From: a bacterium
Lineage (GTDB): Bacteria > Armatimonadota > Chthonomonadetes > Chthonomonadales > CAJBBX01
DNA length: 21,260 nucleotides
NCBI GenBank assembly: GCA_021811565.1
Contig: JAJZOL010000106.1
Location: forward strand, 1 to 21,260
Direction: 5' to 3'
Shown here: positions 41-19,705 of the stretch, one piece after another
Position numbering within the stretch: position 1 is the first letter of the stretch
Layout of the letters: each line of letters opens with the position of its first letter
Notes under the pieces: generated by a model
Told to the model about the DNA's origin: nothing
Database searches by the model: none
Seen by the model: only the letters and a program-made list of their open reading frames with translations
Program-made: the position numbers and the translations under genes

Positions 41-856
41 TTATAAAGCCCCCAGAAATTTGTGCGTTTGAGGAATGATCCGAACATCCCTCAAAGAGGA
101 TAACGCGACTCGATGAAGCGTACGTAATCGGGAAAGCGATATGGTCTCGCGAATATCCCCGCAAGGAGTTACGGGCTGAAGCACCAAAGGAATGTCTTTC
201 GAGAAACCGTTGATGATAACCGACACTCTTTCAATCTCTTCAAGCGTGGTGTCATCGCTCACCACGGCTTTGAGAAAGACGCGAACCGAAGAGTTCAACG
301 CAAGTTGCAAGAAGCGGGAATGTTCCTCCCATTTGGGAGGCTGATGCGTGGCGGAGGGAAGTTTCACGTCCATGGCGCAGTAGTCTATCAGATGAGCCAA
401 CGACGCAAACCTCTCGAAGAGATCGCCGCTGGTTTCCAGGTAAATATCCAAACCCATCTCCGCAATCTCCGGCAACCAGCCGAGCAGGAATTCCGACTGG
501 AGCAGCGGCTCGCCTCCCGTAATCGCCACGGAATGAAAAGCCTCCCCCGACACCATATCCTTGATAATTTCGATGAGGTCCGAACCGTTCACGGGATTGG
601 GAATCTCACGCACCTCATGGACACACTCGTTTTTTAATATTCGCAACGATTTACCGCGCGTTAGGGAATTCGGAGTGTCGCAGTAGGCGCATCTCAGATG
701 GCATCCCGCGAAGCGAACAAATAGTTGCCGCACACCCACCCAAAGACCCTCCCCTTGAAAACTATCGAATATCTCGGTGAGATAGACGGATGAAATGTTC
801 ACGGAAGGTCTTAACAGTCCATTATCCTGATTGGATTGCGGCATCGAATTCATCAT
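41..856 (-). CDS. queE: 7-carboxy-7-deazaguanine synthase QueE (radical SAM); start codon uncertain (Met13, Met14 or Met17 of the maximal ORF)
   Basis: Translation carries the EIFxSxQGEG motif followed by the CxxxCxYCDT radical-SAM cysteine triad (FAGCHLRCAYCDTPNS). Candidate ATG starts at 856, 853 and 844 sit just after the AAAGGA Shine-Dalgarno embedded in the 3' end of the upstream Rieske gene. The maximal ORF overlaps that gene by 71 nt, so a later start is more likely. Confidence 0.75.
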   Translation of the reverse strand: MMNSMPQSNQDNGLLRPSVNISSVYLTEIFDSFQGEGLWVGVRQLFVRFAGCHLRCAYCDTPNSLTRGKSLRILKNECVHEVREIPNPVNGSDLIEIIKDMVSGEAFHSVAITGGEPLLQSEFLLGWLPEIAEMGLDIYLETSGDLFERFASLAHLIDYCAMDVKLPSATHQPPKWEEHSRFLQLALNSSVRVFLKAVVSDDTTLEEIERVSVIINGFSKDIPLVLQPVTPCGDIRETISLSRLRTLHRVALSSLRDVRIIPQTHKFLGAL

Positions 857-1199
857 CCTTTTTGACAACGCACGTTGCTTCCTGATCGCCATCCGGAATT
901 TCCAGAAAAATCACTCCGTCCATGATTTTGCAAGGATAGGTTTTGGATTTCAGCCTGGGGTTATACACCACCTCACCCGTTACTGCGTTTATATCCCATG
1001 CGTGCCAGGGGCATGTCACGATTCCGTCATTCAACTCGCCTTCGGATATAGGGCCTTGTCGATGAGGGCATTCGTTATCCAATGCGTAAACGGTTTCGCC
1101 TTCCTTGAAAAGAGCGATTTCCAAACCGTCGATCTCCACCATTTTCCCCGTCGATTCGGATAGATCGGTTAGCATCGCCACAGGGGTCCAAATAGACAT
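822..1199 (-). CDS. small Rieske [2Fe-2S] domain protein (NirD-like Rieske ferredoxin)
   Basis: Translation has CPHRQGP...CPWHAWD, the two Rieske cluster-binding boxes (CxH ... CxxH), in a 125-aa protein. A strong SD (AGGAGAGAAGGA) sits 7 nt before the ATG at 1199. The 3' end overlaps the queE start, implying translational coupling. Confidence 0.8.
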   Translation of the reverse strand: MSIWTPVAMLTDLSESTGKMVEIDGLEIALFKEGETVYALDNECPHRQGPISEGELNDGIVTCPWHAWDINAVTGEVVYNPRLKSKTYPCKIMDGVIFLEIPDGDQEATCVVKKDDEFDAAIQSG

Positions 1200-1561
1200 T
1201 AAATGATCCTTCTCTCCTATGTTATCGCGGCGATTCGCCTAAATTCACTTTTATGATGTTTCGCAGAGAGTGTGATGAGTGATATGCGCCTCAATTGCTG
1301 AATTATGCTTTTTCATAACATAGTATACCCCTTGCCGAAGACCGTCGCACCGATTTTTAAGCCTCGCTAACCATCTGCAATCCAATCATGTCAGGATATG
1401 ACAGGAAAACTCATTCCTTCTCCGATACTGTGGCGGCATATGCAATATCCATCTCACAATCCAATGGATTGATGGAAGAATATAGTGGCGCACTTCCAAA
1501 AAAACTTCGGGAATGGATATGAAATCGAGAGTAAAGCGTAATAAGGGTAAGCTGTCGATTT

Positions 1562-3684: not shown

Positions 3685-3822
3685 CTACTTGCCGATCTTA
3701 TACATCTTGGTTCCGCAGGTGGCGCATGTACCTGTGGTTGCGGGCTTGCCGTTCTTCATTGTGACGGCGGTCGGGTTCTTCATCTCTTTCTTGGCTTTGC
3801 ATTTAACGCAATAGGCTTCCAC
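3685..3822 (-). CDS. small zinc-ribbon protein, 45 aa (DUF5679-like), not in the ORF track because it is under 60 aa
   Basis: Minus-strand translation V/M-EAYCVKCKAKKEMKNPTAVTMKNGKPATTGTCATCGTKMYKIGK-stop has two CxxC pairs (CVKC ... CATC) in a lysine-rich 45-aa frame. The GTG start at 3822 is preceded by AGGGGGGTGAGA, and an alternative GTG lies at 3831. The terminator hairpin at 3640-3660 follows. Confidence 0.6.
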   Translation of the reverse strand: MEAYCVKCKAKKEMKNPTAVTMKNGKPATTGTCATCGTKMYKIGK

Positions 3823-4057
3823 TGATCTCACCCCCCTAAATAAGATTGGTTTTCATACGACGAAAAAGAGGTATTTCCTTCCCGATCTGATCGTTGAGGG
3901 ACAAAAATATCCCTTTGATCTCAATCAGGAGCCTGATCCGCCTTGCATCGCATCAGGATTTCATTGTACCCCTATTTACGCCGAAATGAATTTCCTCGTT
4001 CCCCTCGATCACGCCCAATTGAAATACGAACGAAGGCTCCAATGACAGGTAGAATCT

Positions 4058-12875: not shown

Positions 12876-12946
12876 TCGCTTCCCGTGGGATAGCGTACCG
12901 TTTCAAACATATTAAAGCGTCACCTTGACGTATGGGATGGATAACC

Positions 12947-13864
12947 ATGGAGAACAGATGCGCCGCAATTGATGTCGGTACGAACACCGTTAAACTCACC
13001 ATAGTTGAGAAGGAATCCCGCAACGCTTTCATTCCCTTGGTGGACACTGCGGTAACCACACGACTAGGAGAGGGCATTCATGCAAAGCGACTTAGAGAGA
13101 CCGCGATTCGCCGCACGATCAATTGCCTGCAGGATTATATCGCCTTGTGCCGCGCGCATCATGTGGAGCGCGTTGCCGCCGTGGGAACGTCCGCCCTCCG
13201 AGATGCGGTAAATCGAGATGAGTTTCTGGAAAGAGCGGCGGAACTCGGACTGAACGTGAAGGTCATTTCAGGGGAGGAGGAGGCGCGTCTCTCTTTTCTG
13301 GCGGTTTCGCGCGATCCGTTATGGCGTTCCGCGGATAGGGTCGTTGTCGTGGATATCGGTGGGGGCAGTTCGGAGCTTATCCTTGGCGAGCCGAGGCTGG
13401 GGGATATTCAAGAGCGTATCAGCTTTCAGATCGGGGCTGTGCGGTTGACGGAGACTTGCATTCGCTCCGACCCGCCAAGCATACGCGACATGGCGGAATC
13501 CAACGCCGCCGTCTCAGAAGCGATGAAGGGATTCTCCTTGCCAGACTCATCCATGATAGCCGTTGGAGTTGGAGGGACGTTCGTCAACATGGCTGCGGTA
13601 AAGGAGGGGATGGAGCAAAAAAATCCCGAACGGCTGCATGGTGTTCGATTGACATCATTGGACGTGGAGGCGCAAATCACCCTTTACGCCTCGAAAACCA
13701 TTGAGGAGCGGAAAAGAATCACCGGACTTGACCCGGCACGCGCGGATATCATTCTTGGAGGCGCGATCATCCTATCTCAAATTCTCAGCCATTGCGGACA
13801 GGATTCCATCCATTGCAGCACGCGGGGTTTGCGATGGGGGGTGTTGTACGATGCGTTCCGCTGA
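12947..13864 (+). CDS. Ppx/GppA-family protein, N-terminal actin-like ATPase domains only (split gene, part 1)
   Basis: AIDVGTNTVKL...VGTSALRDA...VVDIGGGSSEL...GLDPARADIILGGA match the Ppx/GppA phosphate-binding and adenosine motifs and align with the N-half of the intact paralogue at 14568-16124. The frame ends with TGATAA exactly where the inter-domain linker begins. Confidence 0.8.
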   Translation: MENRCAAIDVGTNTVKLTIVEKESRNAFIPLVDTAVTTRLGEGIHAKRLRETAIRRTINCLQDYIALCRAHHVERVAAVGTSALRDAVNRDEFLERAAELGLNVKVISGEEEARLSFLAVSRDPLWRSADRVVVVDIGGGSSELILGEPRLGDIQERISFQIGAVRLTETCIRSDPPSIRDMAESNAAVSEAMKGFSLPDSSMIAVGVGGTFVNMAAVKEGMEQKNPERLHGVRLTSLDVEAQITLYASKTIEERKRITGLDPARADIILGGAIILSQILSHCGQDSIHCSTRGLRWGVLYDAFR

Positions 13865-13944
13865 TAACCGACTGTATAATCGCCGCTCATCCCTATTAAG
13901 AGAGCATTTATCCGCCACTCAAAATTGTTATTGTGAGGGGAGTT

Positions 13945-14571
13945 ATGGATTCCAAATTGCAACTTGACGCCATATTGCAAATTGCCAGTCGTTACAATTA
14001 TGATTCGCTTCATTCACATCAGGTTGAATGCCTCGCAGGCACTATCTTTATGGAGTTGCTGGAATACCATCAACTGAGCAGGGATGATCGGAAGCTTTTG
14101 GAATATGCGGCCATATTGCACGACATCGGCTACTACGTCGCCAGAAAATCCCACCATCGCCATACGATGATGATGATCCTGACCGAACCGCTCATTCCGT
14201 TCGACAGAGAGGATGTCAAAGTGATAGCCAATGTCGCAAGGTATCACCGCAAGGCTCTTCCCACTCCCGAGCATACCGTTTTCGGCACACTGAACGAAGC
14301 GGACAGGCAAAAAGTTCGCATTCTTGCCGGGATACTGCGTGTTGCCGATGCGCTGGATCACGCCCACAAGAGCCTGGTGAAGGAATTGACATGCGAAGTG
14401 ACGGAGGACTCCGTCGTATTTCATATCGTTTCCGATCAAGATTTGCCAGAGGAGATAGCATCCCTGAACGCTCGCGGGGATCTATTCCGTGAGGTGTTTC
14501 GCAAAACTCCGAAGGTAAAGGTCGAGGTGCCAAGGCTTGCCTCACCTCAGGCGGTTTTTCAAACGTCATGA
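13945..14571 (+). CDS. HD-domain protein corresponding to the Ppx/GppA C-terminal domain (split gene, part 2)
   Basis: ILHDIGYYV (the HD motif) and YHRK align with AYLHDIGCFL and LYHRKG of the intact paralogue's C-half. It has its own SD, GTGAGGGGAG, 4 nt before the ATG. The stop TGA overlaps the ATG of the next gene (ATGA). Confidence 0.75.
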   Translation: MDSKLQLDAILQIASRYNYDSLHSHQVECLAGTIFMELLEYHQLSRDDRKLLEYAAILHDIGYYVARKSHHRHTMMMILTEPLIPFDREDVKVIANVARYHRKALPTPEHTVFGTLNEADRQKVRILAGILRVADALDHAHKSLVKELTCEVTEDSVVFHIVSDQDLPEEIASLNARGDLFREVFRKTPKVKVEVPRLASPQAVFQTS

Positions 14572-16124
14572 AAATACTCGCAGCCATTGATATCGGCACC
14601 AACGCCATCCGTTTGGAAGTGGTTCGAATTGAAGCGGATCATAGCCTGACCACGCTTTCCCAGCAAAAAGAGACCGTGCGACTCGGAGAGGGCGAATTCG
14701 CCACCAACCACATGTCCCCCGCTGCCATCGAAAGAGGCGCTCTCGTTTGCGCTCGTTTCGCGGATATGGCGCGAGGTTTCGGCGCCGAAGAGATCATCGC
14801 ATTGGCGACATCCGCCGTTCGCGAAGCGGAAAACAAGCTTGATTTTCTGGAAAGAGTGAATAAGGAGGCCGATCTGGACGTGAAGGTGATCTCCGGACCG
14901 GAGGAGGCACGCCTGATCTATCTCGGGGTGTCAAGCGGAGCCGCCATAGGAGACAAGCGTTGCATCTTCATAGATATAGGCGGCGGCAGTACCGAGTTGA
15001 TTCTTGGGGATGGAAACGATTACTTCCGCTTGGAGAGTTTGAAGCTAGGGTCCATCCGCCTATCAAACAAATTCCTTCAAGGAGAGAAGGGCGCCATCTC
15101 ACCGGACAAGATGCAGAAGTTGAGGGAATACGTCAGGGGCATTGTAAGTCACACAACGCGTAACCTCACCGATTTCGGATATGAAGCGGTATATGGCAGC
15201 GCCGGCACGATCACCAACCTTGCCGATATCACCGCAAGAAGGCTTGGCGACTCGCCTTCCTCCTTGTTGAACTACTCCGTAAAGGTCTCCGATTTGCAAT
15301 CCAGCGTGGATATGCTTGCCAAGCTAAATTTGGAGGATAGGCGCAAGGTGCCGGGATTGGATCCAGATCGAGCGGACATCATACTCGGGGGTGCGGTGAC
15401 ACTGATGACCATCTTGGAGAATTTAAAGGCTGAGAGGTTGATCATCAGCGACCGAGGGTTGAGGGATGGTATCATTGTGGACAGGCTTATGCAGGAGGCT
15501 CCCTCCAGTCCGCTCTTCGACAACACCTCCCTGCGGAAAAGAAGCATCCTGCAATTCGCCCGCTCATGTAATTATGATGCCGAGCATGCGAAACAGGTTG
15601 CCAGGATCGCCTGTCAGCTTTTTGACGAGATGAAGCGATTGGGGTTTCATCCCTACGGACCGAAGGAGAGGGAGTTGTTGGAATTCGCGGCATATCTGCA
15701 CGACATTGGATGCTTCCTCTCTCACACGAACCATCAAAAACACGCCTATTATCTTATTCGCAACGCCGACATATTAGGGTTCAACGATACGGAAATCGCT
15801 ATCATCGCGAATATCGCTCTTTACCATCGAAAAGGCGTTCCCAGGAAAAAACATGAGAATCTCGCTTCATTAACTCGACCGGTTCGGCACCTTATCAGCG
15901 TTCTTTCGGCGATCATTAGGATTGCGGAGGGGTTGGATCGAAGCCACTTGAATTTGGTTCAAGGGGTGAGGATGGAACCCGCTCATAATCCGGACAGGCT
16001 CATCCTCACGATTCTTTCCGAGGCGGATTGTCAATTGGAGATATGGTGGGTGGAGGAGAACAAGCATCTTTTCGAAACGGTATTCGACAACTCCTTATCC
16101 ATCTCCGTCCACAAACCGGAATAA
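14568..16124 (+). CDS. ppx: exopolyphosphatase / guanosine pentaphosphate phosphohydrolase (intact two-domain Ppx/GppA)
   Basis: 518 aa with AIDIGTNAIRL, DIGGGSTEL and GLDPDRADIILGGA (ATPase half), then an HD half with YLHDIGCFLSH and LYHRKG. Confidence 0.85.
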   Translation: MKILAAIDIGTNAIRLEVVRIEADHSLTTLSQQKETVRLGEGEFATNHMSPAAIERGALVCARFADMARGFGAEEIIALATSAVREAENKLDFLERVNKEADLDVKVISGPEEARLIYLGVSSGAAIGDKRCIFIDIGGGSTELILGDGNDYFRLESLKLGSIRLSNKFLQGEKGAISPDKMQKLREYVRGIVSHTTRNLTDFGYEAVYGSAGTITNLADITARRLGDSPSSLLNYSVKVSDLQSSVDMLAKLNLEDRRKVPGLDPDRADIILGGAVTLMTILENLKAERLIISDRGLRDGIIVDRLMQEAPSSPLFDNTSLRKRSILQFARSCNYDAEHAKQVARIACQLFDEMKRLGFHPYGPKERELLEFAAYLHDIGCFLSHTNHQKHAYYLIRNADILGFNDTEIAIIANIALYHRKGVPRKKHENLASLTRPVRHLISVLSAIIRIAEGLDRSHLNLVQGVRMEPAHNPDRLILTILSEADCQLEIWWVEENKHLFETVFDNSLSISVHKPE

Positions 16125-16145: not shown

Positions 16146-16838
16146 TTAAGGCTTCACCGCCATTTTGGTTATTTCATCCCCGAGTGTGATTTTATCCACG
16201 ACATTCATCCCCGAGATCACCTTCCCGAACACGCAATAGTTTCCATCGAGGAAATGGTTGGATTTCAGATTGATATAGAACTGCCCATTTGCTGAATTGG
16301 ACTTCGGTGCGTTCAACGCCATCGCCACCGTGCCGGTGATATTCTGCAAATTGTTTTTCTCGAATGGAACATACACCCCCGAGCCTCCCGTTCCAAGACG
16401 AGCCTCCTGTATTTGATTCGGCGTCATCTGGGCTAACTGTTGAGTGGTGTATTTGCGCGTTTGCGGATCTCCCGCCTGCACAACAAAATTCGGCTCCACT
16501 CTATGGAACTTGATCCCGTTATAATAACCGGAGGTCACCAACCGCTTGAATTCCGCGACAGTTTTAGGGGCAGCTTGAGGGTAAAGCTGCATTGTGACAT
16601 CGCCTTTGCCCGCGATGGTCATGACGACATTGAACGCCCCTTTCATCGGCGGCTTGAAAACCTCCGTTGGAGTGGATGTGGAAGCCGTGGAAGTGGAAGA
16701 CGACGAACTCGAAGAGCTTGTGTTATCCTGGTCCGCCGGATTGCCTATCAGACCACCCTTGGGGGGTTTCGGCTCGACGATGAACATAACAAGAAGACCA
16801 AAGATAACGATTCCGAAAATCCAGAGAATTGATTTCAT
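16146..16838 (-). CDS. membrane-anchored cyclophilin-type peptidyl-prolyl cis-trans isomerase
   Basis: N-terminal TM helix, a Ser/Thr-rich linker (SSSSSSSSTSTASTSTPT), then the cyclophilin core FHRVEPNFVVQAGDP...GTVAMA...NGSQFYINL-like motifs. Confidence 0.85.
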   Translation of the reverse strand: MKSILWIFGIVIFGLLVMFIVEPKPPKGGLIGNPADQDNTSSSSSSSSTSTASTSTPTEVFKPPMKGAFNVVMTIAGKGDVTMQLYPQAAPKTVAEFKRLVTSGYYNGIKFHRVEPNFVVQAGDPQTRKYTTQQLAQMTPNQIQEARLGTGGSGVYVPFEKNNLQNITGTVAMALNAPKSNSANGQFYINLKSNHFLDGNYCVFGKVISGMNVVDKITLGDEITKMAVKP

Positions 16839-16965
16839 AGTTCAACCTTACATGTGAAGATGTGATAATTGATTGTTTACGCGGGTTCGATTTTACACAA
16901 TAGACGAACAATTGTCAACAAAATCCATGCTTTCATGGATGAGCAAAATGCTCGGCGTGGGTATT

Positions 16966-17040
16966 CCCTCATTCCTGGAAGCCATTATGCGTATGATCCC
17001 TGAATTTTGCAATTTGCTCATGGTATAATTCAATAATCAA
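16966..17040. repeat. intergenic repeat copy A (CCTCATTCCTGGAA ... CCTGAATTTTGCAATT ... CTCA ... TAATTCAATAATCAA), shared with 19176-19240
   Basis: Direct comparison of the two intergenic regions (see findings). Copy A carries a 25-nt internal insertion flanked by CCTG(G/A)A. Confidence 0.5.
17021..17029 (+). promoter_or_regulatory. extended -10 promoter element TGGTATAAT for the downstream orphan membrane-protein gene
   Basis: Perfect TATAAT preceded by TGG, about 120 nt before the ATG at 17148. It lies inside repeat copy A. Confidence 0.45.
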
Positions 17041-17147
17041 TCGCCAAGGGCGTTTTGCATTCCTTTGGCGGTTTTCTTTTACGGAGCAGGTCTCATTCCC
17101 GTATTAAATACGCATACAACGCAAATTTCATCACGAGGAAACCATCA

Positions 17148-18104
17148 ATGAGCAAACGCTCAGGGAAAACTGTCCGTCTGTTGGTCTCAGTGGCATTCGT
17201 CATCGTGGGTGGACTGATATCCGATCTTAACGTGGCGGCGTTCTGGAAACCTATCATACAGAACCTCGGTCTTTCCTTCATCGTTACCGGCGTGGTCAGC
17301 ATCTTTTACACGACATCCATTCTTCATTTGGAATCCGAAGAGGAGGGCGATGTCGTATCCGAAAAGGTGCTCGAGAAGCTTCAGAACCGACTGCCGATCA
17401 CCAACGGGATACGCATGGTCACTCACGCTCGAAAAGGGGCGGATGCATATTACTCGTGGATCACCGCTCCTGGCAATCCCGACCTGTTTTTCGCGGGGAG
17501 ATCTGTGCTGCATCGCATCGATTATGACATGAAACAGCGAGGGAAAGGATCCGCTGAAAAGGTTATCGCCGCGCGATTGAAAGCCGGGGCGACCATCAGA
17601 GTCCTGTTTTTGGACCCGCGCTCCTGCCTCATTGAACGCCTCGCCAAGGAATCCGGGCAGATGAAAGAGGCGATGCTCTCCGATATCGCCAACTCCCTAG
17701 GCATATGTCAGCGACTGTACGCTCAGTTTTTGAAAGGACATCGGTTCAGTTCACGCTCGCGACTGGAAATTCGGGTGTACGATGAGACGCCCTATTTCGC
17801 CTATCACAAACAGGATGACAAGGTGTTTGTTGGTTTTTATTTCATGAGCGGTCTCGGTCAGGACTCCGCGGCGTTCGAAACATTGGATTCCGAAACGCGC
17901 AAACTGTTCGGAGATCATTTCGCCACCATTTTCAGCTCCGCAAGCCGGCTCCTGGAACTCATCCCTCACAGAGCGGATCCTCTGATGGATTTACAGCTAA
18001 TGGAGGAGATGCGAACGGCGCTTGCTGAAACGCTGGGAGAAGAGCGCACAGCGCAAATCATGGGTGCATCCGGTGATAACTTACACAACAACCACACCGT
18101 ATAG
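17148..18104 (+). CDS. hypothetical membrane-anchored protein (2 TM helices plus a roughly 250-aa cytoplasmic domain of unrecognised family)
   Basis: ATG at 17148 preceded by GAGGAAA. Two hydrophobic helices ([17 protein letters not shown]; [20 protein letters not shown]) are followed by a soluble domain in which I cannot recognise any catalytic motif (no HKD, no GGDEF, no P-loop). It has its own promoter and a non-coding flank on each side. Confidence 0.5.
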
Positions 18105-18238
18105 GAAATGAACCTTCAAGAAAACGAAGTCTTGGCGTCTGTCAATTCATTCCGACATCCGATTTTCAAAGGGGTGGAAGGATTGATTCCGCTTTTTCCG
18201 CAACGGGTGATAAAATATTAAAAAGTGATGGAGGATGC

Positions 18239-19009
18239 ATGCTCGCAAAACGAATTATCCCGTGCTTGGATGTCAAAGAGGGTCGGGTTGTGAAGGGAGT
18301 GAATTTTCTTAACCTTCGCGACGCAGGCGATCCCGTGGAGTTAGCCTCCCGATACGATCAGATGGGGGCGGACGAGCTTGTCTTTTTGGATATTACGGCA
18401 AGTCACGAGAAACGAGACATCATCTACGATGTGGCGGCAAGGGTGGCGGAGCAGGTTTTCATCCCATTCACTGTCGGCGGCGGCATTCGAACCACCGACG
18501 ATTTTCGTAAGATTCTCAAGGCGGGAGCGGACAAAGTCAGCGTAAACACCGCAGCCATACAGAGACCGGAGATTCTCACCGAGGCGGCGCGGCAATTTGG
18601 CAACCAGTGCGTGGTCGTGGCTATCGATCCCAAGCGAACTGGAACCTATACAAACGGCGCCCCCAAATGGGAGGTGTTCATCCACGGCGGACGAACTCCC
18701 ACTGGGGTTGATGCATTGGATTGGGCGCAGAGAGCGGAGGAGTTGGGAGCAGGCGAGATCCTTCTGACCAGCATGGACAGAGACGGCACCCAAGTGGGAT
18801 ACGATTTGGAGCTGACAAGTGCAGTGGCGAGCAGAGTGTCGATTCCCGTGATAGCCTCAGGCGGGGCGGGGACACCGCATCATTGCCTGGAGGCCCTTAC
18901 GGATGGGCAAGCGGATGCGGCGCTGATCGCTTCCATGGTTCATGATGGAACCTACACCATTCGGGAGATCAAGGACTATCTCCAAGCCAAAGGCGTTTGT
19001 GTAAGATAA
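18239..19009 (+). CDS. hisF: imidazole glycerol phosphate synthase cyclase subunit HisF
   Basis: [16 protein letters not shown]...[11 protein letters not shown]...PFTVGGGIR...VSVNTAA...VVVAIDPKR...GGAGT are the canonical HisF (beta/alpha)8 motifs. Confidence 0.9.
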
Positions 19010-19175
19010 GAAGCAAACGCCAAATGGTTCGCTGAGCTTGCAATAAGCGTTTTTAAACTCATTTACAGGCTTTTCAGTTTAGTTTCAAATGCCAGCCTGC
19101 AATGGTGGTATTTTGACGACATTTAAAAACACAGGTAATTTCAAAATTCGTTTTCAGGTATTTAGCCGAGCGTGA

Positions 19176-19240
19176 AATGAGCGATAATAGCCTCATTTCC
19201 TGAATTTTGCAATTACCTCAACAATTAACTATCAACGGGC
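19176..19240. repeat. intergenic repeat copy B (GAAATGAG-loop-CTCATTTC hairpin plus CCTGAATTTTGCAATT ... CTCA ... CAATTAACTATCAA) in the hisF-hisI gap
   Basis: About 75% identical to copy A over 60-70 nt. Contains a perfect 8-bp inverted repeat, GAAATGAG/CTCATTTC, with a 10-nt loop. Confidence 0.5.
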
Positions 19241-19315
19241 TGTGCAGCACGCATTTCGGACGATTAACGTCCATACAGGCGTATCACACTCCTCTCCAAA
19301 CAGAAAGGGCGATCC

Positions 19316-19705
19316 TTGGAAGCGTTAAAAGATTTGAAGTTTGACGGAAACGGATTAATTCCGGCTGTTGTTCAGGATGCTGAAAACGGACAGGTGTTAA
19401 TGGTCGGATATATGAACCGTGAAGCGGTGGAACAGACCATCCTCACGAAAAAAGTGACATTTTGGAGTCGCTCCCGACAGAAATTTTGGATAAAGGGAGA
19501 GACGAGCGGTCATTTTCAGCATCTGAAAAGACTATACGTTGATTGCGACCAAGACTGTCTTCTAGCGGAGGTTGAGCAGGAAGGAGCGGCGTGCCATGAA
19601 GGCTATCGTTCCTGTTTCTTTCGAGAGGTGCAATCATCCGGAGAACGCCTGGAGATTATCGCCACTCAATTAAAAACGCCGGAAGAGATATACGGAAAAA
19701 AGTGA
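19316..19705 (+). CDS. hisI: phosphoribosyl-AMP cyclohydrolase HisI (monofunctional)
   Basis: GLIPAVVQD...[11 protein letters not shown]...[19 protein letters not shown]...DCDQDCLL...[11 protein letters not shown] match the HisI cyclohydrolase Zn/Mg-site motifs. TTG start at 19316 with GAAAGGG 6 nt upstream. 129 aa, with no HisE domain. Confidence 0.8.

Follow-up and report, generated by a model that had tools for sequence, protein, structure and literature searches.

A 21,260-nt stretch of DNA (contig JAJZOL010000106.1, hereafter the window) from an uncultured bacterium that belongs to the order Chthonomonadales, in the phylum Armatimonadota, contains a short sequence that occurs in two separate intergenic regions. 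Copy A is located upstream of a gene for a DUF5919 membrane protein, and copy B is located in the spacer between hisF and hisI. [quoted passage not shown] The element that holds copy B exhibits terminal inverted repeats, related copies of it are dispersed in the genomes of this clade, and it is present at the hisF-hisI site in some genomes and absent in others. The working definition of a MITE combines small size, terminal inverted repeats, a short flanking duplication, several dispersed copies, and insertion polymorphism; the duplication is here a candidate that is clear at one copy only.

Structure of the element in the hisF-hisI spacer

Copy B, the 22-mer CCTGAATTTTGCAATTACCTCA at 19199-19220 (plus strand), belongs to an 88-nt inverted-repeat element (winB) at 19132-19219 (plus strand) that was identified from its arms, its fold, the empty sites in relatives, and its homologous copies. 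The left terminal inverted repeat is AGGTAATTTCAAAATTC (19133-19149, plus strand) and the right terminal inverted repeat is GAATTTTGCAATTACCT (19202-19218, plus strand), the latter overlapping the 16-mer that is shared with copy A. Both arms are 52 nt apart and are complementary at 16 of 17 positions. The consensus of the 17-nt terminal arm is (C/G)AGGTAATTGCAAAATTC. The element is flanked by an AACA direct repeat that is a candidate target-site duplication, of which the left unit (19128-19131) was read from the sequence and the right unit (19220-19223) was identified from the sequence together with the empty sites. An earlier note on this DNA, made from the sequence alone, had described an 8-bp inverted repeat in copy B, GAAATGAG/CTCATTTC. 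That repeat is confirmed at 19174-19181/19192-19199 and forms the inner hairpin of the element (19174-19199, plus strand), but the 17-nt partner arm at 19133-19149 had been missed.

The element is predicted to fold into a long hairpin (-26.3 kcal/mol with z=-4.2 as RNA, and z=-4.1 as DNA). It is A+T-rich and non-coding, being crossed only by spurious open reading frames (ORFs) of 28-45 aa, and its 88 nt fall within the size range of MITEs (about 50-500 bp, no coding capacity). On the plus strand, the A+T-rich stem is followed by CAACAATTAAC with no U-tract, and an intrinsic terminator on that strand was rejected on these two grounds. A family-wide inward promoter in the arm (TTGCAA-17-TATTAT) was also rejected because its -10 box is not conserved in the other copies. 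An outward promoter (TTGCAA-17-TATCAA), which agrees with the consensus at 8 of 12 positions, is weak and falls below the scan threshold; such a promoter is possible but unsupported.

Weak matches to the element profile (7-13 bits) are found in the left part of the hisF-hisI spacer (19010-19127 in the window and 3778-3865 in locus L096 of a relative). An older, decayed copy of the element may therefore underlie the spacer, next to the intact one.

Presence and absence of the element at the hisF-hisI site

The closest named relative of the window is the metagenome-assembled genome (MAG) contig DAIDHP010000022.1 of 'Chthonomonadales bacterium clean347' (locus L039), which is 93% identical to the window at the nucleotide level over 7.7 kb. 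The nucleotide identity of hisF to that of the window is 91-94% for L039 and L096 and 82% for L003. These three loci and the window represent the four lineages that were compared.

The element is present in the window and in L001/L002, which come from an independent assembly of the same strain. It is absent from L039 and L096, the two closest relatives, where the spacer is otherwise alignable and lacks the 88 nt together with one AACA. The junctions of the empty sites read ...GACAATTAAC in L039 and ...AACAATTCAC in L096, so that a single direct repeat is left at each site, GACA in L039 and AACA in L096. The site in L003 is occupied by a decayed copy (L003gapB). More distant relatives have a hisF-hisI spacer of 11-65 nt, and both genes are nearly contiguous in L005-L009 and L095. 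The relatives that have no element still have hisI.

Cut-and-paste insertion by a transposase supplied in trans would create the AACA duplication, and loss could occur via excision or via slippage across the hairpin between both AACA repeats. If the element is co-transcribed with hisF-hisI, the transcript would acquire a stable stem-loop (about -26 kcal/mol) 97 nt before the hisI start, which might alter the processing or stability of the his messenger RNA (mRNA).

Dispersed copies of the element

A full element was identified downstream of hisI in L003 (8507-8604) by a mismatch search with the 17-mer. This copy and winB are 72-73% identical over 96 nt and are in opposite orientation. A profile (nhmmer) that was built solely from these two copies matched 1239-1313 of the window (E=6.7e-6), and the match was refined to a degenerate third copy at 1227-1320 (plus strand) that is 64% identical to winB. 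The earlier note had counted two copies in the window, and this degenerate one had been missed. It adjoins the ribosome-binding site of a Rieske-protein gene (822-1199, minus strand), 28 nt upstream of the start of that gene. In the L177 lineage, the orthologous site is occupied by a shorter version whose outer arm is better preserved.

The four-copy profile identified a further copy at 16365-16445 of L177-L182 (E=3.6e-6), between a gene for a GntR-type regulator and the next gene in the L096/L177 lineage, and a second, weaker match 2 kb from it. Among the 1.35 Mb of DNA that was searched with the element profile, nothing below E=0.01 was obtained outside the loci of this clade. The family also has no sequence match in the plasmid and phage collections (blastn of the element) or in the Rfam collection that were searched.

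Dispersed copies were found within single genomes. The window genome has them at two loci within 28 kb, the L003 genome has two within about 27 kb, and the L096/L177 genome has one or two within about 27 kb. The density of recognisable copies in the clade is about one per 10-15 kb sampled. The copies are found in both orientations relative to the downstream gene. The L003 and L177 copies also have arms, which match GGTAATTGCAAAATTC; the terminal stem is kept in the intact copies and lost in the degenerate ones. Non-orthologous copies from different species are 72% identical, whereas the orthologous pair of winB and L003gapB is only 54% identical, a pattern more in keeping with spread from a conserved source than with vertical decay alone.

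The suggestion of the earlier note that the shared sequence could be a MITE-like dispersed repeat is supported for copy B, once the unit is redefined as the 88-nt element of which the shared core forms one arm. Of copy A, only 22 nt belong to the element. The note had also proposed that a lack of further copies and of conservation would indicate chance similarity. Diverged copies do exist; copy A is conserved and copy B is not.

Extent of the sequence shared by copies A and B

The exact 16-mer CCTGAATTTTGCAATT is common to 16999-17014 and 19199-19214 on the same strand, and 20 of 22 bases are identical when the CTCA extension is included. TTGCAA lies inside this shared core, as the earlier note had stated. 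The longer similarity that the note had claimed (60-80 nt at about 75% identity) is no better than chance. Identity of 74-83% between both copies was obtained only under free gapping. When the 22-mer was fixed and the flanks of copy B were shuffled, 48 matches were observed against 46.3 +/- 2.0 (P=0.28). The flanks were also compared with those of 55 unrelated genomic sequences that have the same 18 bases. The ungapped comparison of the flanks of both copies gave 26/90 matches, which is not above the 55 control flanks, and gapped comparisons under stringent and moderate scoring likewise placed both copies no closer than the controls. Only the most permissive gapped scoring placed the pair in the top ~5-8% (3 and 4 of the 55 controls). 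The 25-nt insertion that had been proposed for copy A is equally unsupported, since all four lineages have those bases and exhibit no indel. Homology of both copies over 60-80 nt with an insertion in copy A was ruled out by the control comparisons and the indel-free relatives.

Exact searches in large collections returned mostly unrelated sequences. The 16-mer has 27 single hits in IMG/VR, which fits chance, and an 18-mer of the element end has a single chance hit there in coding-like DNA. The 18-base pattern has 57 exact hits among the GTDB genomes, and all of them are unrelated except the ortholog of copy A in L039; several fall in a conserved coding sequence, or in a repeat of a Desulfocapsaceae MAG that has no relation to the element. 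That MAG has at least three copies of this repeat, which starts by coincidence with the same 18 bases and then continues identically for more than 60 nt (L053 105-124, L063 257-276, and L073 5694-5713). The Desulfocapsaceae repeat probably marks where a mobile element of that MAG ends.

Copy A as a probable relic

Taken as an arbitrary pair, a 16-mer or a match at 20/22 lacks significance in a window of 21 kb. The top score of copies A and B was reached in 14% of composition-preserving shuffles (14-22% in another run), and the next-longest exact repeats in the window (one 15-mer and several 14-mers) are found between unrelated genes and are clearly due to chance. The element family, however, was established without reference to copy A. 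With the end of copy B given as the query, none of 1000 shuffles yielded a second match with at most 2 mismatches to the 22-mer. Copy A is also recovered, at 4 mismatches, when the L003 copy supplies the end that is searched with (P=0.002). Because of these two results, the relic reading is favoured, and copy A is probably what remains of an old insertion of the family. It would be the surviving end of that insertion, which selection would have kept as part of a divergent promoter region while the rest decayed.

Copy A (CCTGAATTTTGCAATTTGCTCA, 16999-17020, plus strand) resembles the terminal repeat of the element and was aligned to the right-arm region of copy B. The full element profile aligns only positions 74-95 at this locus in the window, L039, and L096, with a weak 5-bit extension into the element body at the same locus in L003. 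The profile of the element body has no match in the 90 nt upstream of copy A. Copy A as a full element was rejected, since the 13-nt inverted repeat at 16939-16951/17009-17021 is not kept in L096 or L003, the fold is unremarkable (z=-1.2), and no body match is found upstream.

Copy A lies within a 45-nt block (16997-17041) that is invariant in the window, L039, L096, and L003 except at position 17016. The DNA just upstream of this block diverges freely in L003. Copy A is adjoined by the extended -10 box TGGTATAAT of the DUF5919 gene promoter (17021-17029, plus strand), which the earlier note had identified and which is confirmed here; it is invariant in the four lineages and is also found in the 64%-identity relatives L005-L008. 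On the minus strand, a promoter-like site with the TTGCAA of copy A as the -35 box (TTGCAA-17 nt-CATAAT, 16984-17012) is kept in the same register in L039 (TATATT) and in L096 and L003 (CATAAT). A sigma-54 promoter was rejected because the GG at -24, as read from the sequence, is missing from both copies.

A terminator-like hairpin with a T-run is located in the 5' leader of the DUF5919 gene (17039-17080, plus strand). It consists of a 12-bp stem followed by TTTTCTTTT, about 5 nt past the predicted start of the DUF5919 transcript and about 65 nt before the start codon. The hairpin is kept in the four lineages with one compensatory change (L096), and an analogous hairpin with a T7 run is found in L005-L008. 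It resembles a terminator or attenuator in the leader, or else a very short RNA. To the left of the copy A site, a near-consensus promoter of the cyclophilin gene (TTGACA-17-TAAAAT, 16890-16918, minus strand) is kept in the relatives, and a small hairpin with a T-run (16923-16940, minus strand) is found just upstream of it on the same strand.

Weighing of the explanations

Several findings weigh against the reading of copy B as a MITE-like end and of copy A as its relic. The pair of copies A and B was picked since it matches, and as an arbitrary pair it is within chance (P~0.14). The promoter region of L005-L008 exhibits a loosely similar sequence, CCTG--TTTTGTCAAT, in a different register, which could mean that copy A is old native promoter sequence. 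Only 11 nt separate TATAAT from the TTGCAA of copy A, which hence cannot be the -35 box of the rightward promoter. A clear direct repeat is found only at winB, as none is visible by eye at the L003 copy downstream of hisI or at the L177 copy, and the AACA pair could equally be microhomology that was used in a deletion. The presence of the element in the window and L003 and its absence in L039 and L096 require two losses, or one loss and a re-insertion at the same site. The loci examined, the plasmids, and the phages yielded neither a parent insertion sequence (IS) nor a transposase that has these ends. The exact 18-base scan of GTDB found only the ortholog of copy A in a relative, an outcome that is uninformative rather than negative at the family identity of ~50-70%.

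Some of these findings would also be expected if copy B is a MITE-like end and copy A is an unrelated native promoter sequence that matches it at 20 of 22 bases by coincidence. The shuffles described above reach such a match in a 21-kb window at ~14%, the same window has the chance 15-mer and 14-mers, the homology of both copies ends at 22 nt, and L005-L008 have their similar promoter sequence with no family copies nearby. We nevertheless regard this coincidence as unlikely. In a chance pair, the likelihood that one partner also coincides with the ~20-nt terminus of the single intact repeat element of the window is well below 1%, no shuffle gave a match with at most 2 mismatches once the end was given in advance, and relics are to be expected in a clade where the family is this dense. 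The earlier note had proposed instead that both copies are binding sites of a common regulator that links both genes, and an operator through which a single regulator, or a nucleoid protein, controls both the DUF5919 gene and hisI would account for the invariance of copy A in the four lineages, its overlap with the promoter region, and the location of both copies on the same strand, 117-149 nt upstream of a start codon. MITEs can also carry protein-binding sites such as those of integration host factor (IHF) (PMC10969869). An operator of this kind should be conserved upstream of both genes, but only copy A is kept: copy B is absent in L039 and L096, is degraded in L003, and has no spacer to occupy in L009 and L095, with hisF and hisI nearly contiguous throughout L005-L009 and L095. 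Since close relatives do without copy B, a regulator site common to both genes is unsupported. The family copies moreover adjoin unrelated genes in both orientations and the dyad symmetry is limited to TTGCAA, so that we judge such an operator very unlikely. It is also improbable that the 22-nt end is a functional protein-binding or promoter module that is spread by the element, with one copy domesticated as the core of a divergent cyclophilin/DUF5919 promoter; new insertions, such as the one before hisI, would then tie genes into an existing circuit.

Other explanations concern the nature of the element itself. It could be a REPIN-like doublet moved by a REP-associated tyrosine transposase (RAYT, IS200/IS605-type), or a structural palindrome of the ERIC type, instead of a MITE of a DDE transposase. 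The size of ~90 nt, the long hairpin, and the location in a transcribed spacer fit these types, and a target-site duplication is clear at one copy only. However, the single arm AGGTAATTGCAAAATTC is not palindromic, exhibits no internal hairpin, and has no GTAG; the flanking AACA, of which one copy is left at the empty sites, has the form that cut-and-paste insertion and excision would leave; and no RAYT gene turned up in the examined loci, the coverage of which is small. Both types are improbable on this evidence. Least probable of all, and highly improbable, is that the hisF-hisI element serves as a functional RNA, whether as a terminator, as a small RNA, or as a leader of hisI that resembles a riboswitch. 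Such an RNA would explain the strong predicted hairpin and, on the minus strand, the promoter-like TTGCAA-17-TATTAT inside the element and the T-run after the hairpin. The inner -10 box is nevertheless absent from the other copies, the plus strand has no U-tract, and the element is dispensable in close relatives. Rfam 15 gave no match to the window at the gathering score, and 16840-19330 had none even at E<=1; neither a consensus structure nor covariation was obtained from five copies (RNAalifold).

Comparison with known repeat elements

The element is similar to bacterial MITEs in being 88 nt long, non-coding, A+T-rich, and intergenic, with terminal inverted repeats and a short flanking direct repeat. 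It also shares with them the several diverged copies and the presence or absence between close relatives. It differs in that the direct repeat is clear at one copy only and the parent IS was not found.

On paper, the element resembles the Correia elements of Neisseria (CREE/nemis), which are inverted repeats of ~100-150 nt located just upstream of genes. Correia elements have arms of ~26 bp, a TA duplication, and an IHF site. There is no sequence similarity between both, and the element described here has 17-nt arms and AACA. The -10-like boxes also vary between the copies of this family, so promoter activity would not be a family-wide feature as judged from these boxes. Correia and other elements represent MITEs with sigma-70-like promoters and hairpins that are processed by RNase III (PMC10969869). 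Promoter boxes of the sigma-70-like type can be provided by Correia ends, transcripts of these elements fold into hairpins, and effects of the stem-loops on processing or stability have been reported for Correia and ERIC elements (PMC10969869).

The ERIC/IRU elements of enterobacteria are similarly imperfect palindromes in transcribed operon spacers; their presence at orthologous sites varies between related species, and they may influence how stable the mRNA is. They differ from this element in phylum and sequence and in their length of about 127 bp, and ERICs have no accepted target-site duplication. REPINs, which are REP doublets mobilised by RAYT, are also intergenic, hairpin-forming doublets of a short repeat of roughly 100 nt. 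REP arms consist of a short palindrome with a conserved GTAG-type head. The arms of this element are non-palindromic and have no GTAG head, and a flanking direct repeat is present.

Gene context of the window

The genes around copies A and B are a gene for a cyclophilin-type peptidyl-prolyl isomerase (16146-16838, minus strand), the DUF5919 membrane protein gene (17148-18104, 318 aa), hisF (18239-19009), and hisI (19316-19705, TTG start). The spacer between hisF and hisI is 306 nt long, and hisI is followed by a gene for a 1432-aa protein. The DUF5919 gene had been described as an orphan, a label that does not apply to a protein with a DUF5919 domain and 153 homologs at E<=1e-3. Its position upstream of hisF is retained in three related clades; the gene is present there in some relatives and absent from L094, L095, and L097. 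The named DUF5919 homologs exhibit a patchy taxonomic distribution (a Methanophagaceae archaeon, Microbispora, Nonomuraea, Desulfobacteraceae, and Binataceae).

Two neighbouring Ppx/GppA phosphatase paralogs are located at 12932-16124 of the window. The first is split into a catalytic ORF of 305-310 aa and a 208-aa domain III/HD ORF, and the second is a fused protein of 518 aa. Both paralogs are the source of the longest direct repeats in the window (about 70% identity). The region at 1200-2202, between the Rieske gene and a gene for a Leu/Phe-tRNA-protein transferase, is about 1 kb long and has no confidently called gene. The related loci show only small or low-quality ORF calls there, and no Rfam match was obtained at the gathering score. 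The search for transfer RNA and transfer-messenger RNA genes returned none.

Significance of the element family

The element is most likely an ordinary kind of selfish DNA rather than a shared regulatory switch. The regulatory link that had been proposed between the membrane-protein gene and hisI is replaced by a simpler account, a small selfish repeat and a probable relic of it in a promoter. The full-text literature search for Chthonomonas and 'repeat' returned no title or abstract that describes such a repeat family, and this MITE-like family is apparently undescribed in Armatimonadota, a phylum that has received little study and of which most members are uncultured. With the family profile, intergenic repeats in the MAGs of this clade can be masked or annotated, likely break points of assemblies can be flagged, and strains can be typed by presence or absence. 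If copy A is indeed a relic, it would be a candidate case of a mobile-element end that has been kept as promoter DNA.

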